Notes: a model not told the origin generated them from the letters alone. Counted from the stretch's first letter, positions 1-10,733 are shown. The stretch is DNA of 10,733 nt from a virus (IMGVR_UViG_2740892112_000004:1-10733), one strand, 5' to 3'. Numbers and translations: made by a program.

Positions 1-165
1 ATGGCAAAGCCGATCATCACGCTCAATGGCCTAAAAATCGTCATTATGTTGGGAATGCTGGTCATTATTCTCTGCGGTATCCGTTTTGCCGCCGAGATTA
101 TCGTGCCGTTTATTCTCGCATTATTTATTGCTGTTATATATAACTCATTTCACTTAACACATTGA
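1..165 (+). pseudogene. 5' fragment of a membrane-transporter gene (N-terminus resembles AI-2E family exporter TqsA/YdgG as I recall it); probable chromosome/element junction
   Basis: ATG at 1, 46 codons of strongly hydrophobic sequence ([46 protein letters not shown]), then the frame changes character (YNSFHLTH) and stops at 163-165. AT-rich non-coding DNA follows. Family assignment is from memory. Confidence 0.45.
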
Positions 166-211
166 TTTAATTAAATAATTTTCACTACAAAAAGTGCCAT
201 AAATCGCAAAA

Positions 212-233
212 TGACTACACCAGTGACTACACC
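212..233 (+). repeat. Tandem direct repeat TGACTACACC x2 (12-bp period); candidate integrase arm-type sites
   Basis: tgactacacc at 212-221 and again at 224-233, about 75-95 bp from the putative junction; a related tcactacaa lies at 182-190. Function is inferred only. Confidence 0.3.
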
Positions 234-342
234 GTTCGGTGCACTGTATGAAACAACGTGGAACAAATAGACACAAGAAATATACAGGCGGGTCATCTTT
301 CCAGGGGGAAGCGCGCTAATTCATGAGGGGCGTTAATGTTGA

Positions 343-358
343 TATGGGGATCCCCATA
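343..358. repeat. 16-bp perfect palindrome TATGGGGATCCCCATA
   Basis: Read directly. A second hairpin follows at 367-384 (ACCGGA, T6 loop, TCCGGT). Confidence 0.5.
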
Positions 359-550
359 ACGGGGCTACCGGATTTTTTTCCGGTTAACTGTTAATCAGGC
401 TGGTGGGCTTTACCTGTTTTGTAGGAGTGGTCATTATGACCATTCAGACAATGACCTTAATCAGAACTTTTCGCTAAAAAATGGCGTTGGTCACGTCGTC
501 CGGAAAGCACAAAATCCCGTCAATTTTTAATTAACGGTTAAACCGTCTTT

Positions 551-600
551 TGTCACGGCGTGTCACTGGTTGTCACTCTCCGTCACGGTATGTCGCTACT
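551..600 (+). repeat. Five head-to-tail 10-bp units each beginning (T/C)GTC(A/G)C; candidate protein-binding array
   Basis: tgtcacggcg / tgtcactggt / tgtcactctc / cgtcacggta / tgtcgctact at exactly 10-bp phasing, ending just before the stop codon of the 603-884 ORF. Confidence 0.5.
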
Positions 601-602
601 CG

Positions 603-884
603 TTAACGCCGTAACCGCTCCGGCTTCTTCCAGTGGTACGTAATTTTCTCCGTTTCCCGATACAGTGCCACGCGGCGATTGTAGGCCAGCATTTCAAGAA
701 CGCGGATCCGTATGTTGCGCATATCCACATCATTAAGCTGGATACCATCACGGCGCATCACCTCAGCAACCACACGCGCGTAATTTTCGGCGGTCACGCT
801 GTCCGGCTGCGTGGCCTGTTCGTCATGCTGCTGGCTGATTCCGGTAACGCGGCGGATTAATCCCAGTAGTTCGGCTTCTGTCAT
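603..884 (-). CDS. Hypothetical protein, 93 aa
   Basis: ORF with a GGGGG Shine-Dalgarno about 5 nt upstream of the ATG at 884. No family recognised. Confidence 0.5.
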   Translation of the reverse strand: MTEAELLGLIRRVTGISQQHDEQATQPDSVTAENYARVVAEVMRRDGIQLNDVDMRNIRIRVLEMLAYNRRVALYRETEKITYHWKKPERLRR

Positions 885-920
885 TGTGCCCCCATCGCTC
901 TGATAGTCTGGTGTCGTCGG

Positions 921-1115
921 GTCCTTCCTGGAATTATGGCCCGTTACGGGGCGGCGACCTCGCGGTTTTTATCTGTTTATGAAAATTTTTCTGGAAAAAG
1001 CATGTCGGTACTTCTCGAACATAACTATTTGTTTTTAAATAGATACACAATAAAAAGAAACGACACGGTAATCATCTAAAATGGCGATTTATGACGCTTT
1101 CATGTCGTTTCTCAG
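921..1115 (+). other. Lambda-type cos site, copy A: cosQ-like flank, cosN (GGGCGGCGACCT at 949-960), and a cosB with R3/I1/R2/R1-like layout
   Basis: ccgttacgGGGCGGCGACCTcgcggtttttatctgtttatgaaaatttttctgg matches my recollection of the lambda cohesive-end region. R-site-like motifs: catgtcggtacttctc (1001-1016) and catgtcgtttctc (1101-1113) direct, agaaacgacacg (1055-1066) inverted, with an AT-rich IHF-like stretch between. Confidence 0.8.
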
Positions 1116-1139
1116 TTTTGTTCAATAATTGCGCGTCTG

Positions 1140-1682
1140 TTACTCGCCTTTCTTCTGTAGCAACTTTTCCGGTACGTTTCCGGTTGTTTCTTTCAAGTAA
1201 TCAGCCAGTATCTGTGGGAGGTTGTCGGCAACTCTGGCACTGGCATTACAGGCTTTAACCACTTCCCTTTTAAGCCTATCCAGCATGGCGGGGGTAATCT
1301 GTGGGAAGCTCCTTTGCATAGTAAGCGGGAGGCTGTCCATGATTGATGAAATCTGACTCGCCAGCTTTGAAAGCGCGTACAGGCAAAACTCAGTATCAAT
1401 CACGTCACCGCGATCGCGCTCGTTTTTAAGTTCCTGCGCCTCCGCCTGTGCTGTCAGTAATCTGATCCTGACTCGTAAGAGTTCATCATCATCAATATCG
1501 CCTTTGTCGTTTGTAAGCTGGCTAATTGCATTGTTAACCCTATTGTCTATCACGCTGGCAACATCGTAAAACGCCTCACGGCCTTTACGTTCAACGGGAG
1601 TCACTCCCCACTTGTCGAACGCTGTCGCACTTACACGGCAGCTTTTCGCCATGTTTTTTTTGTTCATCAGGTGCGATTTCAT
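1140..1682 (-). CDS. Terminase small subunit, lambda Nu1-like (175-180 aa; start could be 1682 or the Met at 1667)
   Basis: Full-length resemblance to lambda Nu1 as I recall it. N-terminal NKK..A......V.....W............G.E..YD.A.VI and central/C-terminal LTAQAEAQELKNERD ... TEFCLYALSKLASQISSIMDSLPLTMQRSFP. Similar length (Nu1 is 181 aa). No clear SD at either candidate start. Confidence 0.8.
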   Translation of the reverse strand: MKSHLMNKKNMAKSCRVSATAFDKWGVTPVERKGREAFYDVASVIDNRVNNAISQLTNDKGDIDDDELLRVRIRLLTAQAEAQELKNERDRGDVIDTEFCLYALSKLASQISSIMDSLPLTMQRSFPQITPAMLDRLKREVVKACNASARVADNLPQILADYLKETTGNVPEKLLQKKGE

Positions 1683-1683
1683 T

Positions 1684-1721
1684 AATACACCAACTTAATT
1701 ACTGCTTCAGGTTGGTGTATT
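1684..1721. promoter_or_regulatory. 11-bp perfect inverted repeat (AATACACCAAC ... GTTGGTGTATT, 16-bp spacer) abutting the terS start codon
   Basis: Read directly; complementary arms at 1684-1694 and 1711-1721. Confidence 0.35.
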
Positions 1722-1789
1722 GTTTGCATCTTTCCCTTTTCATTCATAAAGATAGAGCAAACAACAAAACCACCACCCCCCTGAAAAGG

Positions 1790-1850
1790 CTCATAAATAG
1801 CGAAAAACCGCGAGGTCGCCGCCCCGTAACGGGTCCATATGCCGGAAAGG
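1790..1850 (-). other. Lambda-type cos site, copy B (inverted relative to copy A): cosQ-like flank plus cosN (minus-strand GGGCGGCGACCT = plus 1813-1824), no recognisable R sites
   Basis: Minus strand reads tatgggtcctttccggcatatggacccgttacgGGGCGGCGACCTcgcggtttttcgctatttatga. About 85% identical to copy A over roughly 70 bp. Sequence beyond that, toward terS, diverges and lacks GTCGTTTC-type motifs. Confidence 0.75.
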
Positions 1851-1856
1851 ACCCAT

Positions 1857-1880
1857 AAAAAAAAGCCGGATTTCTCCGGC
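1857..1880 (-). terminator. Intrinsic terminator after the capsid operon
   Basis: Minus strand: GCCGGA-GAAA-TCCGGC hairpin followed by T8, immediately after the stop of the 1887-2300 ORF. Confidence 0.6.
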
Positions 1881-1886
1881 CTTGTC

Positions 1887-2300
1887 TCAGATGGTTTTCA
1901 GTATGCGATCGATGTCGCCGTCATCGCCCTGGTTTCTGCCATCGTATGCCATGCCAGCTGATACGGCTTGCGGGCTGTGCATGTCCATAAAGTTTTCAAA
2001 GGCTGCAGTAAGTTCCGGCGCAACCTTCGGACGTTCCTGCTCTATGGTCATGCTAAGGATGCTTTTAGCCGTACCAACATCGATACAAGGCACGTTTGCC
2101 ATTGCACGTAACAGCGGCTGATAGTCGCCAGATTCATCAAGCGCCATAATCGCATCAGCGCGCGGCTTGTCCTGCTCTTCCAGTTTGTTTAGTTGATATA
2201 CGGCCTCATAGGTTGATAAACCTCTGTCAGCCATTGCCCGCGCTTCGGCTTTAAATTTACTCGCCAGCGGTAGCGTCATGATGCTTTCATTCGTTGCCAT
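1887..2300 (-). CDS. Hypothetical protein, 137 aa (possibly head or packaging accessory by position)
   Basis: ORF with AGGGGGAA SD 4-5 nt upstream of ATG at 2300; last gene of the capsid operon. No family recognised. Confidence 0.5.
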   Translation of the reverse strand: MATNESIMTLPLASKFKAEARAMADRGLSTYEAVYQLNKLEEQDKPRADAIMALDESGDYQPLLRAMANVPCIDVGTAKSILSMTIEQERPKVAPELTAAFENFMDMHSPQAVSAGMAYDGRNQGDDGDIDRILKTI

Positions 2301-2312
2301 CGTTCCCCCTGC

Positions 2313-2648
2313 TTATCGGGCCAGCGGCTGAACGGATACGCCAGAACCCGCAAAGGCGGCGCATTTTTTCGCATCGGTGTCGACGCTCTCAGGCCAGTTA
2401 ACGGCGGCAATATTGAATATCCCCGTCTTGTAACACTGTGCTGATTTCTGCTTTGACGTGTCCACAGGGTACGAGGTCAGATAAACAGCCTTGCCAGATT
2501 CCTTACCATCCCACGGCTTAAACTCGCCATTGTCCGCCAGCATCAGCGGGGTAAATTCCTGAATAACGCCAGCATCAGCGGCAAAATGTACCAGCGTCGT
2601 GGCGACCTGCTGACTGCCTGCAAATAACTCAATGTATGGAGTGTCCAT
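2313..2648 (-). CDS. Head decoration protein, lambda gpD-like (111 aa)
   Basis: Motifs matching my recollection of lambda gpD: TPLMLAD, WDG, CYKTGIF, WPESVDTDAKKCAAFAGSGVSV (lambda: [38 protein letters not shown]). Similar length. GGGGGA SD. Confidence 0.75.
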   Translation of the reverse strand: MDTPYIELFAGSQQVATTLVHFAADAGVIQEFTPLMLADNGEFKPWDGKESGKAVYLTSYPVDTSKQKSAQCYKTGIFNIAAVNWPESVDTDAKKCAAFAGSGVSVQPLAR

Positions 2649-2659
2649 AGAATCCCCCG

Positions 2660-3715
2660 TTAACCAATTTTGACGGTAACAAATTTACGAATATCTGCCG
2701 GAACCGGCTGCGGTGCGCTGTGCGTCTGCACGTACTCAATCGCCGGATCGCCGTCCCCAATCCAGTTTTTCGGGTAAAACATGTTTTGCGTTGCGCCCGT
2801 TCTTACTGCGTCCTGATCCATAATCGCACCATAGGCCACCAGCCCTTTATTGTTGGTGTTGCCCAGAACCAGCAAATCAGGCTCAAGGAAATATTTTTCT
2901 GTGCCGTCGCTGTCAGTGTATTTGCCGGAATAGACGATAAGGGCAATATCGCCCAGATAGCCTTTAAAGCTCACCACTTCGCCCAGGTTTTTACAGGCCA
3001 GTTCGGCGGCGGACTCTGAACCACGGGAAAGATCGTACAGCTCACGGAATTTTTTAAAGCTGCGTAACGTGCGCCATACCTCAGCGCCCATAATCATGAC
3101 GTTTGCGGGGCAACCAGCCTGATCAGCATAAAGCTCGATGTCATAGATTGGGTCGTGCATGTCTTTATCCTGCTCGGACCATTTTTTACCCTTGGCCTGC
3201 TCTATGATGCAGTTTTCCGGTATTTTCCAGTCGATTTCATAGCGTTCTATGCCTTCGCCCTCAATGATGTTTTTTCCGGTCGTTATCGCATTCACCGCCA
3301 GCCATTCCACGCGCGCTTTAATGGCGTTTACCTGGCGGCGCATGTTGCCAGTAATCAGGCGCATACGGCGGTAGGTAGGGTCGTTAAGCTGTGCCGGATC
3401 TTCTCCAGCCATGCGCATGATGGTTTTCGTTGGATCGATTTCGTGCTTTGGCTTCATGTAGCCAGGTTTAATTGTGCTGGTTTCGTACCCTTTATCGCGC
3501 TGTACCTGGCTGCCAACCATAGGCGAACAAAACGCCGACATGGTGACTTCTTCAATGTCCAGGGTATCCAGCATGATGTTTTGCGTGCTGAATGTCGCCA
3601 CGTTCGGGAAAAACAGCGTAGTAAACAGAGGGTTGAATTTAAAATCCGCAATATCCCCGCGATTCAGGTACATGAAAAGCTGGTTAGTGTTAAGTGCCGT
3701 TGCTTTGCCTGTCAT
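2660..3715 (-). CDS. Major capsid protein, lambda gpE-like (351 aa)
   Basis: Collinear similarity to lambda gpE as I recall it: FKFNPLF..LFF, PGYMKPKHEIDP, DPTYRRMRLI, VSFKGYLGDIALIVYSGKY, LVLGNT, YPKNW..GDPA, SAP. GGGGGTGA SD. Start overlaps the upstream stop (TAATG). Confidence 0.8.
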   Translation of the reverse strand: MTGKATALNTNQLFMYLNRGDIADFKFNPLFTTLFFPNVATFSTQNIMLDTLDIEEVTMSAFCSPMVGSQVQRDKGYETSTIKPGYMKPKHEIDPTKTIMRMAGEDPAQLNDPTYRRMRLITGNMRRQVNAIKARVEWLAVNAITTGKNIIEGEGIERYEIDWKIPENCIIEQAKGKKWSEQDKDMHDPIYDIELYADQAGCPANVMIMGAEVWRTLRSFKKFRELYDLSRGSESAAELACKNLGEVVSFKGYLGDIALIVYSGKYTDSDGTEKYFLEPDLLVLGNTNNKGLVAYGAIMDQDAVRTGATQNMFYPKNWIGDGDPAIEYVQTHSAPQPVPADIRKFVTVKIG

Positions 3716-3921
3716 TATTCACCCCCGTGAACCTGATTCATACCCAGCGCCGCGCGTAAATAGGCGCGTACCTGCCAGCCTGTTGACGGCTCAACCATCG
3801 CCAGCGGATCAAGTCCTGCCGCAATGCCTGCTTTTACGTTCTGCTGGTGGCGTTCCTTGAGCGCCTTCACGATGTCGGGGCTGATGTACACCGAAACACC
3901 GCCTTTTTTCTCTTCAGCCAT
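3715..3921 (-). CDS. Hypothetical protein, 68 aa, first gene of the capsid operon
   Basis: ORF with AGAGGAA SD; stop overlaps the capsid gene start, suggesting translational coupling. No family recognised. Confidence 0.5.
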   Translation of the reverse strand: MAEEKKGGVSVYISPDIVKALKERHQQNVKAGIAAGLDPLAMVEPSTGWQVRAYLRAALGMNQVHGGE

Positions 3922-3944
3922 AGTAAGAAATTCCTCTTTGACTT

Positions 3945-3980
3945 AAAAAATCATAACTGGATGTTCATCCAGTTATGATT
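3945..3980 (-). terminator. 32-bp palindrome (15-bp perfect arms, 2-bp spacer, 3949-3980) followed on the minus strand by a U-run; terminator/attenuator or operator
   Basis: aatcataactggatg tt catccagttatgatt read directly; the minus-strand hairpin is followed by about 6 T. Confidence 0.45.
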
Positions 3981-4086
3981 ATAATCATGATTGCATTTTG
4001 TGCAATGATATTGAGTTGCGTTGCAAATTATGAAATGATTATCCCGATCATGTGTGTCAGTGCACCAAAAAACCTCATATGCAAAA

Positions 4087-4125
4087 GCCCGATAAGATGC
4101 CTCCTGTACTTATCGGGCTTTTTTT
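4087..4125 (+). terminator. Intrinsic terminator (stronger on the plus strand)
   Basis: GCCCGATAAG, 12-nt loop, CTTATCGGGC, then T7 at 4119-4125. Confidence 0.5.
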
Positions 4126-4131
4126 GGGTAC

Positions 4132-4153
4132 AAAAAAGCCGGATTACTCCGGC
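4132..4153 (-). terminator. Intrinsic terminator immediately after the perC-like gene
   Basis: Minus strand: GCCGGA-GTAA-TCCGGC followed by T6, starting 7 nt after the stop at 4160-4162. Confidence 0.6.
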
Positions 4154-4159
4154 TGTTGA

Positions 4160-4432
4160 TTAGCTGTCTGGGTAATTACGCCATATTTCATCGCTTACAC
4201 CATCTATACCCATTTCAGCATAAGTGCGATCTACTGCCTTTCTCAGGTCTCCGAAGTTATCCGGCGGCTCCGGTGGCTTCTGTGCCTTCCTGGAACATTC
4301 CAGCCGTCGCATCGTAACCTGATGCCGTTCCTTGTCTGTCTCCACCAGCAGCATGACTTCACCCCATCGCGCCGATGCCCTCCGGTAAAAGCCTTTTGCC
4401 TCGAGTTCCTCCGCTATGCGGTCATGTACCAT
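4160..4432 (-). CDS. PerC-family transcriptional regulator-like protein (90 aa; start at internal Met 4432 of the 4160-4552 ORF)
   Basis: MVHDRIAEELEAKGFYRRASARWGEVM fits the PerC-family N-terminal pattern as I recall it. GGGGGTGA SD 4 nt upstream of the 4432 ATG, which lies directly after the ssb stop; the longer ORF would overlap ssb by 110 nt. Confidence 0.5.
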   Translation of the reverse strand: MVHDRIAEELEAKGFYRRASARWGEVMLLVETDKERHQVTMRRLECSRKAQKPPEPPDNFGDLRKAVDRTYAEMGIDGVSDEIWRNYPDS

Positions 4433-4442
4433 CGTCACCCCC

Positions 4443-4853
4443 TCAGAACGGAATATCATCACCGTAGGGGTCATCGTCTCCCGCTGGTGGCTGATTACCC
4501 TGTGTGCCTGTGGTTTTGCGTCTGTTCCCGCCAGGACGTGCCGCACGGGCACTGATTACGCTGTCTGCAATAACCTGATAACCCTGCCGCGTTTCCCCGT
4601 TCTGTCCGGTCCACTGGCTGACCTGCATCGTGCCGGATACGCTGGCAACGTCGCCTTTTTGATGTTTAGCCAGGAAGTCGGCCTGCTTACCAAATGCGAT
4701 GACCGATAGCCATAACGTAGCCTGCCCATCCTGCGCCTGACTACATGGCAACGATACCGCCATACGTGCCAGCGTCATTGGTGTGCCCTTGCTGGTCTGT
4801 TTTACCTGCGGGTCGTCCACCAGCCGCCCGTAAGCTGCTATCTGTGCTGTCAT
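4443..4853 (-). CDS. ssb: Single-stranded DNA-binding protein (136 aa)
   Basis: OB-fold SSB pattern with the hallmark acidic C-terminal tip DDDPYGDDIPF. GGAGAGGTGG SD. ATGA start/stop overlap with the upstream gene. Confidence 0.85.
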   Translation of the reverse strand: MTAQIAAYGRLVDDPQVKQTSKGTPMTLARMAVSLPCSQAQDGQATLWLSVIAFGKQADFLAKHQKGDVASVSGTMQVSQWTGQNGETRQGYQVIADSVISARAARPGGNRRKTTGTQGNQPPAGDDDPYGDDIPF

Positions 4854-5101
4854 GATTCCACCTCTCCGGTTTTAACGTTGATGGTTGTCACCTGTTCAGC
4901 TTCCGCAATCTCCCGCTCTGTCAGCGTGGCAAAATTTGCCGCCGTCGTGGTCATGAATGCGCTTATCAGTTCGGGATGTGCTTTCGCGTATCCTTCCCCC
5001 GCGTGGCGGTCTATCGTTCTGATTGCCACCTTTAAGGCGTGCTCTGTCATGTCTAACGCTTTATATTTTGGCTCTGTTCTGTCTCTGTGTTTTTGAGTCA
5101 T
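4850..5101 (-). CDS. Hypothetical protein, 83 aa (start at internal Met 5101 of the 4850-5233 ORF)
   Basis: GAGGTGG SD before the 5101 ATG. The N-terminal extension of the longer ORF is a translation of the iteron repeats and is probably not coding. Confidence 0.45.
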   Translation of the reverse strand: MTQKHRDRTEPKYKALDMTEHALKVAIRTIDRHAGEGYAKAHPELISAFMTTTAANFATLTEREIAEAEQVTTINVKTGEVES

Positions 5102-5102
5102 T

Positions 5103-5306
5103 TGCCCACCTCTACCCACTTTTTTCGCCCACTTTTTACGTTTTCCCACTTCGTCCAACGTGGGAAATTTGGGATTTATATCATCTTGTTTCATAGGTAT
5201 TTTTTTAGTGCCCACTTTTTGGGATATATACACGTGGGAAAGTGGGTAATTTTGTTAAAATTCCGTTAAATCACCCACCTTTCCCACTTTTAATGCCCAC
5301 TTTTTA
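5103..5306. repeat. Iteron array, putative replication origin: at least 8 direct and 3 inverted copies of (G)CCCAC(TTTTT) with AT-rich spacers
   Basis: Direct copies near 5104, 5115, 5128, 5145, 5211, 5274, 5283, 5296; inverted GTGGGAAA/GTGGGTAA near 5160, 5234, 5242. Lies immediately 3' of the helicase gene. Confidence 0.6.
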
Positions 5307-6701
5307 CAGTGGTCCTACATCATCACCGTCAATGTAGATCACGTCGTCTTTTTCCAGTTTGGCTAACCATCGTTTAAGGTGTTTTGTGTCATACCCCAGC
5401 TTTTTCATATCGTCACGTAACAGCGGGATCGTGCACTTGTCGCCGTGCTGTGTGCGTGAACGTATGCATCCCCATAGCGCGGTATGGTTTTCCGTCTTGT
5501 TGCCTGCCTCCTCGATGCGCTCCAGTTCAACGGGAGGGCGCGGCTTATCCACCACCACCAGCGACGTGATTAACTCCCCGTCAGCGTCGGTAAAAAGCTC
5601 CACCACGCGTAAGTCATATGCGGCTTCTTTGAGTTCCTCCGCGTCCTTCATTTTGGTGCATGAGATAACCAGCGCTTCGCTTCCTGCGTCCTCCCTGCGT
5701 ATCCGGTATTCAGCATCCAGCGAAGCACGAAATGCACTGGAACCGCGCGCGCCTTTCGTCTCATCCTTGCCGGAATGGTGAACCACCAGCACCGTGGCCC
5801 CTGTGCGTCGTTTCAGTTCGTCACAACCACGGATAAACGCCCCCATATCACGGGAATCATTTTCATCATTACCACCAAAGCAACGCGCCAGCGTATCCAG
5901 AATAATCATGCGAACAGGTTTACCCGTTTCCCTCTCCACCTGACGGGCAGCGATAACCATTTCATCAACATCAAGCGGGACCGCCGGAAAGATGGGACGG
6001 TTTACCAGATACAGATTTTTCACCTGCTCACCGTGCACAACCTCCCAGGCTTTTACACGACGCGGAACGCCGATACCGCCTTCACCAACCACATAGAGAA
6101 CAGCGCCATGCGCCACCCTGCGGCCTCCCCACTGACGGCCCGTGGAAACGTGACACGCCCACGAACCCGCAAGGAATGATTTATAGGAACCGCTTGCCCC
6201 GTATATGCTGCATAGCGACGATGCCGGAATAATCCCCTTTACCACGTAATCTAATTGCGTGTCGTATCCGGCAGATCCAACGCTCATCGGTAGCGTGGTT
6301 TTTCGCTGGTGGTGTTCTTCCCCTGGCTTTTTCCCCCGCTCCCGTTCCAGATATTCGCGCCAGTTCTCCCGCTTCTGGCCGTGTATCCCTTCGGGGTAAT
6401 AATTCGCATCAGTTACGCCCGCCGCCGCCAGCTTGTGCGCAATGGCATTAATATTTGATGGCCTGATGTGGCCTGCCTTGTACAGCCGGACACAATAGCG
6501 CCCCTCGTCGATGATTCTCAGGTCTGCCAGTTCATCCAGTTGATCATCAGCCAGCACAATGGGAGGCACATTATCGCCAGCCAGTCGCCCGTCCTGTTCC
6601 TGCCACTGTTTCGCATGTGCCCACGCATCACTACCCGCAAAAATGATGACTTCGGTCATCTTGTCGTAAGGCTGTTTTTTTAAGTTCGGTGCGCTTTTCA
6701 T
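5304..6701 (-). CDS. Replication initiator/helicase, RepA-like (AAA_25-type RecA-fold ATPase), 465 aa
   Basis: Walker A-like GASGSYKS, Walker B-like RMIILDTLARCF, VLVVHHSGK motif typical of RepA/DnaB-like helicases. C-terminal about 80 aa could be a DNA-binding domain (inference). AGGGG SD. ATGA overlap with the upstream ORF. Confidence 0.75.
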   Translation of the reverse strand: MKSAPNLKKQPYDKMTEVIIFAGSDAWAHAKQWQEQDGRLAGDNVPPIVLADDQLDELADLRIIDEGRYCVRLYKAGHIRPSNINAIAHKLAAAGVTDANYYPEGIHGQKRENWREYLERERGKKPGEEHHQRKTTLPMSVGSAGYDTQLDYVVKGIIPASSLCSIYGASGSYKSFLAGSWACHVSTGRQWGGRRVAHGAVLYVVGEGGIGVPRRVKAWEVVHGEQVKNLYLVNRPIFPAVPLDVDEMVIAARQVERETGKPVRMIILDTLARCFGGNDENDSRDMGAFIRGCDELKRRTGATVLVVHHSGKDETKGARGSSAFRASLDAEYRIRREDAGSEALVISCTKMKDAEELKEAAYDLRVVELFTDADGELITSLVVVDKPRPPVELERIEEAGNKTENHTALWGCIRSRTQHGDKCTIPLLRDDMKKLGYDTKHLKRWLAKLEKDDVIYIDGDDVGPL

Positions 6702-6997
6702 TTCTTGCCCCTGAATCCGTTAATCATGGTTTTCAGCTTCTGGATGTTTGCCCGTGCCCTGGCGTTGCTGGTGGGCACGTTATGCGGCGCGGTCTGTACC
6801 AGAGAAAAATCACGCCGGAACTGATAAACAGGCATCACGCAATCATATTCGTAACCTTCACGGCGGTAAGTTACGCACCGTCCCGCCACGCCCTTAATCA
6901 TTACCGTGCCGCCGTACTGGTCGCGGTAAATATCACCGCGCATAAATTTAGGGTGAGTGTTGCCACTGGCAGTTAAGCCAGAATATTTAAGTTTCAT
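6698..6997 (-). CDS. Hypothetical protein, 99 aa
   Basis: ORF translationally coupled to the helicase gene (ATGA overlap); GGAGAA SD. No family recognised. Confidence 0.5.
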   Translation of the reverse strand: MKLKYSGLTASGNTHPKFMRGDIYRDQYGGTVMIKGVAGRCVTYRREGYEYDCVMPVYQFRRDFSLVQTAPHNVPTSNARARANIQKLKTMINGFRGKK

Positions 6998-7002
6998 TAT
7001 TT

Positions 7003-7236
7003 TTATTCTCCGGTGTGCTGTTCGTTATATCTGTCGTGCAATGTCTCTATTTCCTGCAACTCATTTATTACAGGCTCAAGAAGCGTTATTAATGATGTAA
7101 TAATCCGCGTTTTTTTTGCATTACGTTCATTATCGCCAAAGGATTCAAGGCACATCCGCAATATTTCGTACATACCTTCAGCGTAAGCAAGGGCACTAAA
7201 TGCGCGGTCTATTGTTTCAAGATAAATATCACGCAT
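7003..7236 (-). CDS. Hypothetical protein, 77 aa, net acidic
   Basis: ORF starting ATGCGTGAT (MRD), overlapping the upstream stop by 8 nt; GAGGA SD. Confidence 0.45.
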   Translation of the reverse strand: MRDIYLETIDRAFSALAYAEGMYEILRMCLESFGDNERNAKKTRIITSLITLLEPVINELQEIETLHDRYNEQHTGE

Positions 7237-7462
7237 GGCTTACATCCTCAGGAAATTTTCTTCTGTAACGCGCCTCTGCCACATATTCCGCATAATCGGC
7301 GGCGATATTCAGTACATCAAGTCCCGTTGATTTATATTCTTTCGTGGAAAGTAAGAAAAAAGCCGCTCTAATAAGTTCTGGCATTGACGAAAGCGCATCA
7401 GCCGCATCATCAGGAACGCCGGAAAATTCCTGTTTCAGGGAATTAAAACGATCATCACGCAT
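7229..7462 (-). CDS. Hypothetical protein, about 77 aa (start uncertain: Met at 7462 with poly-G SD, or 7489)
   Basis: ORF 7229-7489. The internal ATGCGTGAT start at 7462 overlaps the upstream stop by 8 nt and follows a G8 run on the minus strand. Confidence 0.4.
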   Translation of the reverse strand: MRDDRFNSLKQEFSGVPDDAADALSSMPELIRAAFFLLSTKEYKSTGLDVLNIAADYAEYVAEARYRRKFPEDVSHA

Positions 7463-7694
7463 AACCCCCCCCATTTTCACAATCAGCAATCAGGATAGCT
7501 TTGGCCTCATTCAGCGCCGTATCAGCACTAAATTGCATGACAGCCAGTGAGTGAGGAACGAAAGCACCGGCATATTCTGTTTCGCTGGTGGCGTGCTTAT
7601 GTGCCCTGTCCGCGATAACAGAAATATCAATCAGCGCGTGCATCAGCGTTTTGATGGCTTCGGCGGCTGCGTCCGGTGTGGTTTTATTGTGCAT
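7455..7694 (-). CDS. Hypothetical protein, 79 aa
   Basis: ORF with AGGGGA SD 7 nt upstream of ATG at 7694. The C-terminal GGG codons lie in the C8/G8 tract. Confidence 0.45.
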   Translation of the reverse strand: MHNKTTPDAAAEAIKTLMHALIDISVIADRAHKHATSETEYAGAFVPHSLAVMQFSADTALNEAKAILIADCENGGGYA

Positions 7695-7896
7695 AAAGCA
7701 TCCCCTGAATATTCGTGTTAATCATTCCGGCACGTTTTGTGATTTCCTGTAATGATTCCCTTGTGGCGACAATTGCTTCATCTGGTAAGTGGTAATTACA
7801 CACCACGCGACCTTTATCCACATTGACCAGTAGCTGCCCTGTGAATTTCTCACGAAACTGAATGCGGTTAAGGTCAGTAAGTGACAGATTAATCAT
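7684..7896 (-). CDS. Hypothetical protein, 70 aa (start at internal Met 7896 of the 7684-7938 ORF)
   Basis: Very good AGGAGGT SD 6 nt upstream of the 7896 ATG. Confidence 0.5.
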   Translation of the reverse strand: MINLSLTDLNRIQFREKFTGQLLVNVDKGRVVCNYHLPDEAIVATRESLQEITKRAGMINTNIQGMLYAQ

Positions 7897-8086
7897 GGCG
7901 CACCTCCTGACGAATACGGGCGGCAAATACAGCAACACAACCGGACGGGCAACGGTTACGCGCTTCGCGTTCCGTCCAGGCGGTTACGTGGATGATTTGA
8001 GATTCTCCGGCACTCAGTGCCAGAAAACGCCACACAAAGGCCGTTTGTGTGTGTACAAGGTGTGGTATATGATTTACAGCAACCAT
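7889..8086 (-). CDS. Hypothetical protein, 65 aa, first ORF of the long operon (start at internal Met 8086 of the 7889-8161 ORF)
   Basis: TAGGAG SD 6 nt upstream of the 8086 ATG; downstream of the predicted promoter and leader hairpin. Confidence 0.45.
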   Translation of the reverse strand: MVAVNHIPHLVHTQTAFVWRFLALSAGESQIIHVTAWTEREARNRCPSGCVAVFAARIRQEVRHD

Positions 8087-8117
8087 AACGGCTCCTAGTT
8101 TACGTTGTTGGTTAGAA

Positions 8118-8158
8118 GCCCTGCGAGTGGTAACGACACTTGCGGGGCTTTGTCTTTT
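8118..8158 (+). terminator. Strong 12-bp stem-loop; plus-strand terminator-like (followed by TTTGTCTTTT) and also a 5'-leader hairpin of the minus-strand operon transcript
   Basis: GCCCTGCGAGTG, 7-nt loop, CACTTGCGGGGC (two G-U pairs as RNA), T-rich tract on the plus strand. Confidence 0.35.
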
Positions 8159-8179
8159 CATCGATTACCTTGATAAAGG

Positions 8180-8259
8180 TGTCAGCCACTATATTAGTAA
8201 CGGGTGTCAGCCACGTCAATAGTGTTTTTCCGTTTTCTTGTGTGTATACTGTCAGCCAC
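8180..8259. promoter_or_regulatory. Three direct repeats (G)GTGTCAGCCAC; candidate operator sites in a divergent promoter region
   Basis: TGTCAGCCAC at 8180-8189, 8205-8214 and 8250-8259. The first overlaps the predicted minus-strand transcription start, the second sits in the promoter spacer, the third lies just downstream of a plus-strand TATACT (8245-8250). Confidence 0.5.
8191..8219 (-). promoter_or_regulatory. Sigma70-like promoter for the long minus-strand operon (-35 TTGACG, 17-bp spacer, -10 TAATAT)
   Basis: Minus strand reads TTGACG (plus 8214-8219), a 17-nt spacer, then TAATAT (plus 8191-8196). Predicted start near 8184. Confidence 0.5.
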
Positions 8260-8280
8260 CTAATAACGAGGAAATCAGAT

Positions 8281-8460
8281 ATGGCAACAAAAGCAGTTAA
8301 TGCAAAATCCAAAAAGCTTGAGGCTCGAGTACCACACGCAATAGCTGATGCTGTAGAAAATTTAAAGGAAGATGGCGAAAGTACAGGGCAATTTATCGTT
8401 TCGGCACTTGAAGGCGAGATCAAACGCCGCCAGCGCCGCAAGGCCAAAGAATCAGAATAA
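8281..8460 (+). CDS. Small putative DNA-binding protein, ribbon-helix-helix-like (59 aa; start at internal Met of the 8140-8460 ORF)
   Basis: GAGGAAA SD upstream of ATG 8281. KKLEARVPHAIADAVENL...GESTGQFIVSALEGEI resembles a beta-strand/helix/turn/helix RHH pattern; basic C-terminal tail. Fold assignment is tentative. Confidence 0.45.
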   Translation: MATKAVNAKSKKLEARVPHAIADAVENLKEDGESTGQFIVSALEGEIKRRQRRKAKESE

Positions 8461-8517
8461 TCACTATCAGCGCCGTGGTGTGAGGTATTACGGCGCATTG
8501 CTATGCAGGACAACACA

Positions 8518-8691
8518 ATGACCGATAAAGAATTGACCAAAACATTATCACCGGCACGGAAAAGACGGCGCAGAAAGATAGAGCATGAATCAGAAAGATT
8601 CGCGTCATGTGCTTTTGCCCTTGAGCAATTCCTTAAAGAGTACAGGGAAAAGCGCTCATTGCAGGTATGGCAACGAACTGAACCAGACTGA
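8518..8691 (+). CDS. Hypothetical small basic protein (57 aa; start at 8518, or 8503)
   Basis: AGGA SD 7 nt upstream of ATG 8518. Contains an ARKRRRRK tract. Followed by the terminator at 8787-8814. Confidence 0.4.
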   Translation: MTDKELTKTLSPARKRRRRKIEHESERFASCAFALEQFLKEYREKRSLQVWQRTEPD

Positions 8692-8786
8692 TTGCATTGC
8701 CCACCAGCCTGATAGCGGCTATCATCCCCGTGCTTATGTTTGGGATCACACACACAAACGGCGCAGCGGGTTATCTGTTCAGAAAG

Positions 8787-8814
8787 GCGGCTCCATTTCG
8801 GGGCCGCTTTTTTT
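8787..8814 (+). terminator. Rho-independent terminator ending the plus-strand two-gene module
   Basis: 8-bp GC-rich stem (GCGGCTCC / GGGGCCGC, one G-U), 5-nt loop, then T7 at 8808-8814. Confidence 0.7.
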
Positions 8815-8960
8815 ATACCTGAAAAACCCCAATTTTGTTGTTTTTCAGTTTCACCAGGGCGAACGAATCCCCGCCCACGTTCTGGCGTATATTCAATCTT
8901 CATGGTTATAGCTCTGTGTTCAGATGATTGATGTGTGGCGGCTGCGTGCCGCCAGCGTGA

Positions 8961-9149
8961 TTAATGAACTGCCTTGCAGCTATCCTTCCAGGCCAGAACC
9001 TCGGATAAAGACCAGCCAACGGAACGACCGCCAAGTTTACGACGTGATGGGAATTGTCCGGCCTTTTCCAGGCGGTAGCGACACGTACGGCTAAGGCCGG
9101 TTAGTTTTTCGCATTCTTTTTCACGTATAAACCGATCAGTGCTTAACAC
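8961..9149 (-). CDS. alpA: AlpA-family DNA-binding protein (prophage CP4-57-type regulator/excisionase-like), 62 aa
   Basis: Helix-turn-helix pattern typical of AlpA/Vis proteins (LTGLSRTCRYRLEKAGQFPSRRKLGGRSVGWSLSEVLAW). AAGGGGGGG SD. Lies immediately downstream of int on the same strand. Confidence 0.8.
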   Translation of the reverse strand: MLSTDRFIREKECEKLTGLSRTCRYRLEKAGQFPSRRKLGGRSVGWSLSEVLAWKDSCKAVH

Positions 9150-9482
9150 TATTGCCCCCCCTTTCGTTTCTTAAAGAGTCATCAGGTGTCTTATTGTGTC
9201 GTATTGTTCCCGCTAGAGTGATGAATGGCAAATATTGAGGATGTATGATTTACAGAAAATGAAACAGTAAGAATAAAATCTTTTAAATTCATGTTAATAC
9301 AAAGGCATAAAATATTGTTTCATGCCTTTTTTCTCGCTCTTTAAAGAGTGATTCGCTAGTGTATAAAAAACCAGTGACACATTAAAAATCAGCCACTTAT
9401 AAATCTGTATGCTTTTTCGCCTCTTGTTCGTGGTTGTTCCACATTGTTGCTCATTGTTGCACGTTGTATCTGTTCGCATATA

Positions 9483-9498
9483 CAGTATGCGCATACTG
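9483..9498. repeat. 16-bp perfect palindrome CAGTATGCGCATACTG between int and alpA
   Basis: Read directly; 18 bp downstream of the int stop codon. Confidence 0.5.
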
Positions 9499-9515
9499 AA
9501 AAAACACGAAAAAAA

Positions 9516-10733
9516 TTATTTTCTTCTGGCTACTGGTAGCGTGGTTACGTTTTCATGTGTTCCCGCCAGTATCCCTAACCGCTCCGTCCACATATCCAGC
9601 GCATTGCGTTTAGCATCCAGATAACGGGAATGATTATAAACTCGCTGCATTCCTGGCATCTGGTGGCCTGTAAGCTGCTCCACGACATGCGGATCAACGC
9701 CTAAATCGTTCAGCATGGTTGTAAAGGTGCGCCGGATGTCATGCAGTGACCAGTGAGGATGATTAAGCCTCCTGTGCGCTAATCTTCCATACTGCGATAC
9801 GCTGGCCTCCTGTTTCACTTCCCCCAGCAATAAGCCCGTGTGCCTGTTCTGCTCCACCAGCTGCGTGACGAACGGCAGGATCGCTTCCGGTATGGGCCGG
9901 AATATTGCGACCTTCGTTTTGCTGTGCTCCTTCGGAACGGTCCATAGCATTTCCGTAAAATCCCACTCCCCGATCTCCGATAACCTCAGTTCTACCGTTC
10001 TGGCTCCGAAGACAATCAGGAGGCGGATTAACGCGACGTAGTAAGGGGAGAATATTTTTTTGTCCAGTGCCTGCAATAATTCGCCAAGTTCTTTGTTACT
10101 TAAGACACGTTCGCTTATATCCGGTTTTTTCCCAACGTCCGCCACGTTCAGATCGTCCAGAACGTTGCTGATTGCATAGCGCCGCCTACGGCAGAACTTA
10201 AGCGCCTGTTTGCACGCCTGTAGCACGAATCCGGCAGTAACAGGCGTTCGCTTTGCCACCTGGTCAAAACAGGCCAGCCAGTGCCGTAGCTCGCATTTAT
10301 CCAGCGGCATAGCACCAATCTGCTGTATTACGTGATTATTAAGTCGCCTTTTCAGGGCGATATAATCCACGCGGTTTTCCTTTACGTAATACTCAAGCCA
10401 GTAGGTGAGCGCATCGCCAACCGTTACCGGCTTTAACGCTTCCTGTACGGTGTAATTAAGCTCATGACGTGGATTTTTCCCCTCTGCCAGCCATGCGCGA
10501 CACTGGGCGGCTTTTTCCCTGGCTGATTTCAGGCTCAGATCAGGATAACTTCCCAGCTTAATGCGTTCGGGTCGTGTCTCCCTTCCCGTTCCGGCCCTGT
10601 ATGTGAAATACCAGGTCAATTTCCCTGATGTTAAATATTTCACGCTCAGGTTTCCGCCATCACTATAAAACGTGTTTTTCTCCGCTGGCTTACCATGAAG
10701 TTTCCTTAGCAAGGTATCGCTCAGTTTGTTCAT
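9516..10733 (-). CDS. int: Tyrosine site-specific integrase, P4-type (405 aa)
   Basis: N-terminal arm-binding-type region (DGGNLSVKYLTSGKLTWYFTYR). Catalytic-domain pattern with conserved Arg (FGARTVELRLSE), His/Arg box (WSLHDIRRTF) and C-terminal Tyr region (RVYNHSRY). ATG is the last three bases of the window on the minus strand. Confidence 0.9.
   Translation of the reverse strand: MNKLSDTLLRKLHGKPAEKNTFYSDGGNLSVKYLTSGKLTWYFTYRAGTGRETRPERIKLGSYPDLSLKSAREKAAQCRAWLAEGKNPRHELNYTVQEALKPVTVGDALTYWLEYYVKENRVDYIALKRRLNNHVIQQIGAMPLDKCELRHWLACFDQVAKRTPVTAGFVLQACKQALKFCRRRRYAISNVLDDLNVADVGKKPDISERVLSNKELGELLQALDKKIFSPYYVALIRLLIVFGARTVELRLSEIGEWDFTEMLWTVPKEHSKTKVAIFRPIPEAILPFVTQLVEQNRHTGLLLGEVKQEASVSQYGRLAHRRLNHPHWSLHDIRRTFTTMLNDLGVDPHVVEQLTGHQMPGMQRVYNHSRYLDAKRNALDMWTERLGILAGTHENVTTLPVARRK

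Follow-up and report, generated by a model that had tools for sequence, protein, structure and literature searches.

Sequence features of a 10,733-nucleotide viral stretch point strongly to a mosaic EcCICFT073-family phage-inducible chromosomal island in Escherichia coli tqsA, with its own small terminase and a lambda-type capsid operon

Among the Gram-negative phage-inducible chromosomal islands (GN-PICIs), helper induction, transfer and interference have been demonstrated for EcCICFT073 (PMC6092414). That study, by Fillol-Salom in 2018, showed that EcCICFT073 has two functional cos sites and packages phage-sized DNA only, and assigned a putative capsid function to c1499 and a head decoration function to c1500; single deletion of either gene left interference and transfer unchanged, and c1499 and c1501 are listed as a 351-aa (amino acid) capsid gene and a 137-aa gene, respectively (Table S2, PMC6092414). 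Packaging of the island is mediated by Rpp, which binds the helper small terminase (TerS) and redirects it to the island cosB, and which was proposed to derive from TerS (PMC6739421). The islands of strains IHE3034 and 18098 encode a TerS of their own, which those of O42 and CFT073 do not (PMC6092414), and capsid genes, which are dispensable for transfer, occur in 21 of the 29 reference GN-PICIs (PMC10111431). Here we describe the stretch IMGVR_UViG_2740892112_000004:1-10733 (10,733 nucleotides, hereafter the window), which we identify with high confidence as a mosaic, classical GN-PICI of the EcCICFT073 family inserted in E. coli tqsA.

The first-pass annotation, made from the sequence alone, held that the element fits no known satellite class. 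This view is wrong, as the 2018 paper already describes the genes, the two cos sites and islands with TerS, and the class is the best known among Gram-negative satellites. Papers of 2018-2019 had covered this type of island, the capsid and decoration genes, the paired cos sites and the alternative between TerS and Rpp, and the products of the capsid, decoration and 137-aa genes are 95-100% identical to those of EcCICFT073. When set against the prototype (NC_004431, 1377000-1390000), 10 of the 18 window proteins compared are 91-100% identical to their EcCICFT073 counterparts, with order kept. Both islands, of ∼11 kb, run int, alpA, small open reading frames (ORFs), DUF4222, rep, ori, SSB, PerC, p68, capsid, decoration, 137-aa gene, cos, packaging-specificity gene, cos and p93, the two lambda-type cos sites being inverted. 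They differ in that EcCICFT073 has rppA (c1503) where the window has a full-length Nu1-like terS, encodes a D5-type primase, and has an integrase, 91% identical, that targets ycfD-phoQ instead of tqsA. The window displays the features by which PICIs are recognized: a terminal int, alpA next to int, its own rep gene with an adjoining origin, a size within 10-15 kb, a helper-type cos with a packaging-specificity gene, the synteny of the prototype and no tail or lysis genes.

The genes named in the first-pass annotation (integrase, AlpA, RepA-like helicase, SSB, PerC, gpE, gpD and Nu1) were all recovered, well above chance, as Pfam or PHROGs matches, the two sets of assignments agreeing with each other, and the iteron origin, the cos sites and the divergent regulator that it had proposed were each located in the window, the regulator with repeats upstream. 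All assigned genes are on the minus strand, with the sole exception of the ynfO-like gene. The tRNA scan of the window found none, and Rfam at gathering thresholds gave no match in it.

The placement of the island in tqsA rests on the integrase and the attachment (att) site, for which the features are as follows:

1-137 (+): 5' fragment of tqsA; the window begins at the tqsA start codon, and E. coli 042 has an annotated truncated AI-2 transporter here
129-137 (+): attL core TGCTGTTAT, with an identical 9-mer at the other junction
212-234 (+): tandem GTGACTACACC repeats, likely arm-type integrase sites; the 23-mer is also found beside int beyond attR in 042
9516-10733 (-): tyrosine integrase (Pfam Arm-DNA-bind_3 1e-18, Phage_integrase 3e-16)

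The integrase is identical to that of E. coli 042 at 405/405 residues. The in-frame ATG of int at which the window stops corresponds in the alignment to codon 5 of the EcCI042 integrase (409 aa); the window thus lacks the first four codons of that annotation, along with the int-side att arm. On the opposite strand the core TGCTGTTAT reads ATAACAGCA, which is the att core of EcCI042 and EcCIK1516 (Table S1, PMC6092414), EcCIK1516 being a reference PICI in tqsA with the EcCI042 att core. Of 5426 complete E. coli genomes, that of strain 042 also matches best, with 95.7% nucleotide identity across 93% of the window. In that strain the island splits tqsA between mdtIJ and pntAB, and phage genes are not seen nearby. 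Relatives of 10.5-11.4 kb have host genes at both borders, which bears out the first-pass view that this is a satellite and not a slice of a prophage, and the full island measures about 10.8-11 kb. In 366 of the 5426 genomes, 80% or more of the window is found at a single place, and the terS cassette is present in 487.

Other relatives occupy other sites. The ycfD-phoQ locus holds islands in O157:H7, O55:H7 and CFT073 whose integrases are 91-92% identical and whose arm repeats are different; in the O157 relative (integrase 92% identical) TTAACTACACC replaces GTGACTACACC and the att site differs. In one ycfD-phoQ relative (locus L008) the TTAACTACACC arm repeats lie at 3059-3079 and 14036-14056. 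The relative in MS 21-1 is at a tRNA-Pro/yejM site and has an unrelated integrase. Comparison with these islands shows that the window is a mosaic, with the integrase and backbone of EcCI042 and the late module of EcCICFT073, MS 21-1 and ATCC 25922. The window shares with EcCI042, the tqsA PICI, an identical integrase, att core and host gene; EcCI042 differs in what lies between the cos sites, namely an Rpp homologue with cosB sequences of its own. With the MS 21-1 island it shares TerS and capsid proteins that are 100% identical, and the ATCC 25922 cassette is 98.5% identical, whereas these and the other TerS-bearing PICIs (EcCIIHE3034, EcCI18098, EcCIATCC25922 and MS 21-1) have other integrases and att sites (tRNA-Pro/yejM, cspD-clpS).

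The packaging cassette lies near the attL end of the window, and consists of the following:

603-884 (-): p93, a 93-aa conserved protein, the last gene of the island (phrog_1561 1e-56; 91% identical to its EcCICFT073 counterpart)
919-1139 (+): cos with a phage-like cosB (cosQ 919-925, cosN 949-960, cosB 961-1139), pointing towards terS
1140-1682 (-): Nu1-like small terminase TerS, full length, 180 aa (Pfam Phage_Nu1 2.3e-23; phrog_57 3e-53)
1683-1854 (-): satellite-specific cos (cosQ 1854-1848, cosN 1824-1813, cosB 1812-1683), directly upstream of terS as in lambda

The exact 12-nucleotide cohesive end of lambda occurs twice, at 949-960 (+) and 1813-1824 (-), in each case with GGGTCCT (cosQ) before it and a conserved I2 stretch after it, and the two cos sites, inverted relative to each other, bracket terS. 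The cosB at 961-1139 is 80% identical to that of phage PhiR5_1, resembles the cosB of the CFT073 icd prophage, and on this side the sequence is 71% identical to lambda bases 13-120. The lambda-type cosQ and cosN, together with the likeness of this cosB to PhiR5_1, support the earlier proposal of a lambdoid cos helper. The region is matched in 1618 E. coli genomes, many of which have unannotated stretches matching 940-1036 that are probably prophage cos sites. The second cosB (1683-1812), for which a BLAST search against 50,697 phage records returned no match, holds inverted repeats that are candidate R elements.

The Nu1-like terS fills the slot that holds rpp in EcCI042 and EcCICFT073. Relative to 042 the sole replaced stretch is 996-1782, between the cos cores (the 042 counterpart is L001 8997-9658), and the 042 slot encodes a 144-aa protein that matches RppC (PDB 6HLK) at 4.5e-31 and has different cosB regions. 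The window TerS is 35% identical to lambda Nu1 end to end (residues 6-166), and in an alignment with the lambda, N15, PhiR5_1 and other satellite TerS proteins its winged helix-turn-helix (wHTH), central and C-terminal regions all align, the N-terminal wHTH being of the short, N15-like form. A search of PDB sequences with TerS gave no Rpp (RppC) match. The C-terminal segment of lambda TerS binds gpA. A C-terminal interaction with the large terminase (TerL) is also referred to in PMC6739421.

Satellite TerS proteins are themselves mosaic: the window and locus L012 share the N15-like short wHTH, while the TerS of L010 has a phage-like N-terminus yet shares with them a satellite-specific C-terminal tail (TTGNVPEKL...) that is absent from phage TerS. 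In L010, a related E. coli island, terS (12138-12722) is opposite in orientation to the capsid gene, an arrangement that flipping of the cassette between the two cos repeats could have produced. Islands may exchange packaging specificity by recombination at these inverted cos cores.

Several other classes of element were considered. An Rpp-type cos PICI was rejected as the 180-aa protein gives no RppC match at E values up to 1. A P4-like satellite was likewise dismissed, since only int and AlpA have P4 counterparts, and Psu, Sid, delta, epsilon and the alpha primase are lacking (Pfam, PHROG, NCBIfam). The gene order here, E-D-Nu3-like-cos-Nu1, is not that of the phage lambda-type head module (Nu1-A-W-B-C/Nu3-D-E-FI), and the window lacks A, W, B, FI and the protease domain of C. 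With respect to capsid-forming PICIs (cf-PICIs), no ORF matches a portal, maturation protease, head-tail connector, HNH protein or TerL, only the scaffold part of gpC being represented. EcCIEDL933, the cf-PICI prototype, is alike in its int, alpA and rep backbone and in having its own capsid protein and TerS, but adds the portal, maturation protease, connectors, HNH protein and TerL, and forms its own small capsids. The window ORFs include no portal, large terminase, protease domain, tail or lysis gene (ORF scan, Pfam and PHROGs), as the first-pass annotation had stated; its further statement that a scaffold gene is missing did not hold, as the 137-aa ORF matches the Nu3/gpC scaffold part.

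It is very improbable that the window is a decayed lambdoid prophage remnant and not a mobile satellite. This would account for lambda-family E, D, Nu1 and cos sequences without other head or tail genes, but the ORFs are all intact and under purifying selection, and hundreds of genomes share the identical architecture, which occupies several att sites with a separate integrase for each. In addition, E precedes D, the reverse of the D then E order of all sampled phages, the island has int, alpA and its own replicon with iterons, and the prototype is experimentally mobile. A remnant was rejected for the intact ORFs, the selection, the recurrent architecture and the autonomous replicon.

Three further systems are related by design. 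The pac-type Staphylococcus aureus pathogenicity islands (SaPIs) also use a satellite TerS with helper TerL to select satellite DNA. They differ in headful pac packaging, in an unrelated TerS family and in the need for Ppi for interference, the window island being cos-type with a Nu1-type TerS. The cos SaPI SaPIbov5, likened here by description, encodes a coat-protein homologue, Ccm, without a portal or TerL; however, Ccm redirects the helper coat to small capsids, whereas no size redirection was seen for EcCICFT073, and Ccm is not known to be related in sequence or to have a decoration or TerS partner. The helper-embedded 11capE PICIs (PMC10111431) have the same modules and satellite-type E and D, but the window island is in a chromosomal gene, not a helper late gene. 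Locus L013 (2511-14073) is a PICI with E, D and Nu1 in the E gene of a lambdoid prophage, and thus of the 11capE type, although the paper describes 11capE as lacking terS (PMC10111431).

The capsid operon of the window comprises p68, E, D and a scaffold-domain gene:

3949-4034 (-): promoter-like site (4034-4005), then a perfect hairpin of 14 bp with its T run (3980-3949), preceding the capsid operon
3715-3921 (-): p68, a 68-aa protein, probably c1498 (phrog_3255 8e-37; 98.5% identical to its EcCICFT073 counterpart)
2660-3715 (-): gpE-like major capsid protein, 351 aa (= c1499; Pfam Phage_cap_E 1.7e-50)
2313-2648 (-): gpD-like head decoration protein, 111 aa (= c1500; Pfam HDPD 2.5e-17)
1887-2300 (-): 137-aa Nu3/gpC scaffold-domain homologue (= c1501; phrog_53 positions 495-567 of 583, E 1e-8)
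1862-1883 (-): intrinsic-terminator-like hairpin downstream of the capsid operon

Homology searches with the 351-aa and 111-aa proteins matched capsid and decoration families, respectively, as had been proposed. The capsid protein is 95% identical to c1499 and 43% identical to lambda E over 327 aa, its best phage match being 46%; the Pfam match and the identity to lambda E settle the predicted coat fold. The decoration protein is 100% identical to c1500 and 36% identical to lambda D. The 137-aa protein, 100% identical to c1501, covers the C-terminal end of phrog_53, a head-maturation-protease family, and shares 37% identity across 83 aa with the gpC-type protein of the CFT073 icd prophage; the matching stretch of the latter, residues 416-493, is outside its S49 protease domain (146-293). 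The PhiR5_1 counterpart of the gpC gene is annotated as protease C with scaffolding domain Nu3. The stop codon of p68 overlaps the start of the capsid gene, and a small gene also ends at the capsid start in L009, L010 and L011. The promoter-hairpin region at 3949-4034 is conserved in EcCICFT073, and BLAST of the intergenic region ahead of the operon against phages gave no match. The layout of promoter then terminator resembles lambda pR'-tR', and suggests control of the capsid operon by antitermination, or an operator, at 3949-4034.

The capsid module is under selection. From the comparison of two sampled alleles, in which the counts are small, the ratio of non-synonymous to synonymous substitution rates (dN/dS) of the capsid gene is 0.08 (24.5 synonymous and 7.5 non-synonymous differences), and the values for terS, the decoration gene and p93 are 0.12, ∼0.15 and 0.08, respectively; that of the 137-aa gene, ∼0.7, derives from ∼12 substitutions only. 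Homologues of the capsid protein at 68% (Salmonella), 64% and 56% (E. coli), 54% (Serratia) and 51% (Salmonella) identity are all encoded by islands with an int...rep...capsid-decoration arrangement, in four of six of which (L009, L010, L012 and L017, but not L011 or L018) an AlpA-family gene was called beside int, while a homologue at 43% belongs to a complete lambdoid prophage. Identity of E is 50-95% among satellites and 61-96% among four phages but 37-46% between satellite and phage, and identity of D is 43-60% among satellites and 25-39% between satellite and phage. Neighbour-joining trees of E and of D both separate satellites from phages, and in the sampled loci the order is E then D in every satellite and D then E in every phage. 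As far as these few loci show, the module has the look of an old lineage resident in satellites and not of the product of serial recent captures. The low dN/dS of the capsid gene, its separate lineage and the reversed gene order together show that its function is selected.

One of the Salmonella loci, L018 (4292-13978), is an island that carries capsid and decoration genes of the satellite type along with DUF4222 and AAA_25, and that lies inside the tail/baseplate genes of a P2-like prophage; it could be a helper-embedded satellite in a non-lambdoid phage.

What the capsid proteins do is a matter of weighing the published deletions against their retention. In lambda biology, the one known role of the decoration protein is on the expanded lattice of its cognate coat protein. 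As the decoration protein acts only on that lattice, the joint retention of E and D hints that the satellite coat does assemble. For the same reason our best guess is that the satellite E, D and scaffold proteins enter, or form, shells on helper portals with some natural helpers. The fuller form of this idea, that the p68-E-D-scaffold operon is a working shell kit which, with the right natural helper, makes satellite-encoded or mosaic, possibly smaller, capsids on helper portals, is tentative, and we lean against it.

In the prototype the module is not required, as shown by transfer of up to ∼1e6 per ml without the capsid gene: the c1499::cat island reaches this titre with phage 80 (PMC6092414), and EcCICFT073 with cas9 in place of c1498-c1501 retains delivery (PMC10530653). 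The first-pass suggestion of altered or smaller capsids draws no support from the prototype, as EcCICFT073 packaged DNA is phage-sized and deletion of c1499 or c1500 has no phenotype. The markers in these experiments merit attention, however. The tetA marker lies within c1501, the cat marker takes the place of c1499, and the c1499 and c1500 deletions were built in c1501::tetA (PMC6092414), so every marked EcCICFT073 derivative tested had its capsid operon interrupted (c1501::tetA, c1499::cat or c1498-c1501::cas9). We assume that the DNA-size test, too, was made with these marked islands. As the operon was interrupted in all marked islands, and we found no report of particles made by an island whose operon was intact, the published null result leaves room for a structural role.

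These considerations bear on two further explanations. The first is that the window represents a new satellite class between classical PICIs and cf-PICIs, building its own, possibly smaller, shells on helper portals around ∼11-kb genomes with its own TerS. The presence of coat, decoration and scaffold-domain genes in one operon, the coat gene dN/dS of 0.08, the restriction of this E-D pair to a satellite-only lineage across Escherichia, Salmonella and Serratia, and the prior interruption of the module (c1501::tetA or c1499::cat) in the marked islands of the transfer tests would all be in keeping with such a class. It is nevertheless unlikely, given that the prototype of the classical PICIs already has the module, at 95-100% identity, and most reference GN-PICIs have it too, that the DNA in EcCICFT073 particles is phage-sized, that islands without c1499 or with c1498-c1501::cas9 are still delivered, and that no portal, protease domain or head-completion gene is present. 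The second explanation is that the module does not serve satellite particles, but either co-assembles with, and so poisons, the coat or scaffold of other phages or is a back-up copy from helper-embedded relatives inserted in the helper E gene. The relative L013, with the same module inside a lambdoid prophage capsid gene (see also PMC10111431), the relative L018 inside a P2-like prophage, and the SaPIbov5 coat homologue Ccm, which works through interference, fit this explanation, and the 137-aa protein, resembling only the scaffold part of the helper protease-scaffold fusion, could compete with it. Deletion of c1499 or c1500, however, did not relieve interference with lambda, although Rpp remained and may have masked an effect; a back-up copy fails to account for the ≤46% identity to any phage coat protein, and poisoning would have no need for a cognate decoration protein. 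We consider this explanation doubtful, to the same degree as a new class.

With the window island taken as a classical GN-PICI, a life cycle can be proposed from the prototype and the features described above. A lambdoid cos helper would turn on alpA, and AlpA would drive excision and the early operon, as demonstrated in EcCICFT073. By analogy with the prototype, RepA and SSB would then replicate the circle from the iteron origin to give concatemers. Island TerS is predicted to bind its own terS-adjacent cosB (1683-1812), and its conserved C-terminal region to recruit the helper gpA-type large terminase, which would cut the lambda-type cosN. This step would follow the logic of SaPI TerS, and would substitute for the Rpp-TerS heterocomplex of EcCICFT073. 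Multimers of the island could fill helper-built, phage-sized heads, as those of the prototype do, 4 x 10.8 kb giving ∼43 kb, which would suit a head of lambda size; helper tails would be added, and helper lysis would free the particles. The second, inverted cos, with its phage-like cosB, could serve the helper's own TerS directly.

Several points weigh against this assignment and the cycle drawn from it. The att arm on the int side lies outside the window, so that this copy is only presumed complete at that end. The replication protein is a RepA helicase here versus a D5-type primase in EcCICFT073, the two being alike in the first 125 aa alone. In 2018, resident prophages failed to mobilise the islands of IHE3034 and 18098, both of which have TerS (PMC6092414), and we infer from sequence alone that TerS interacts with TerL and which cos site is chosen. 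Finally, the capsid module is dispensable in the prototype (PMC6092414, PMC10530653), which weakens the structural guess.

The regulatory and replication backbone occupies the remainder of the window, with a repeat array close to its attL end:

551-596 (+): four or five TGTCAC repeats in 10-bp phase, downstream of the last gene (three overlapping matches versus 0.03 expected)
4160-4432 (-): PerC-family regulator (Pfam PerC 1.6e-44), followed by two terminator-like hairpins
4443-4853 (-): SSB (Pfam SSB 4e-17; 98.5% identical to EcCICFT073 SSB)
4850-5101 (-): 83-aa conserved protein; phrog_1231 covers residues 45-127 of a longer ORF, and relatives annotate an 83-aa gene
5115-5303 (-): replication origin, nine CCCACTTT-type iterons in both orientations, directly 3' of repA
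5304-6701 (-): RepA-family helicase (AAA_25), replication initiator (Pfam 2.8e-44; phrog_2850 full length)
6698-6997 (-): DUF4222 protein (Pfam 1.5e-23; 92% identical to EcCICFT073)
7003-7938 (-): four small early ORFs, including an Icd-like cell-division inhibitor at 7684-7938 (phrog_340)
8180-8259 (+): three TGTCAGCCAC repeats upstream of the YlcI/YnfO-family gene
8281-8460 (+): divergent YlcI/YnfO-family gene, 59 aa (family match)
8961-9149 (-): AlpA activator/excisionase (Pfam 5e-17; 94% identical to EcCICFT073 AlpA)

The position of the origin 3' of the rep gene is the arrangement described for GN-PICIs (PMC6092414). The DUF4222 gene is also found directly upstream of rep in L009-L013, L016 and L018. 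The small early ORFs are 52-88% identical to their EcCICFT073 counterparts, and the Icd-like annotation occurs in relatives. YlcI/YnfO was the sole match in an NCBIfam scan of the small ORFs. A 263-aa Cys/Ser-rich ORF (8112-8903, minus strand) that overlaps the oppositely oriented ynfO-like gene matches no family; relatives annotate just a truncated pseudogene at this position (Icd-like in O157), and the ORF is probably not a real full-length gene. The alpA-int intergenic region holds arrays with a 10-bp period, GTGTCGTATT x2.2 and TTGTTGCACA x3.4 (9186-9207 and 9434-9467), which may bind a regulator.

Islands of this type are carried by ∼7-9% of complete E. coli genomes. The near-isogenic rpp and terS islands, EcCI042 and the window island, constitute a clean pair for comparing packaging strategies. 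If the capsid operon does prove to be a working shell kit, it would be an intermediate between classical and capsid-forming PICIs. Classical GN-PICIs keep coat, decoration and scaffold-like genes under strong purifying selection even though laboratory transfer does not need them.

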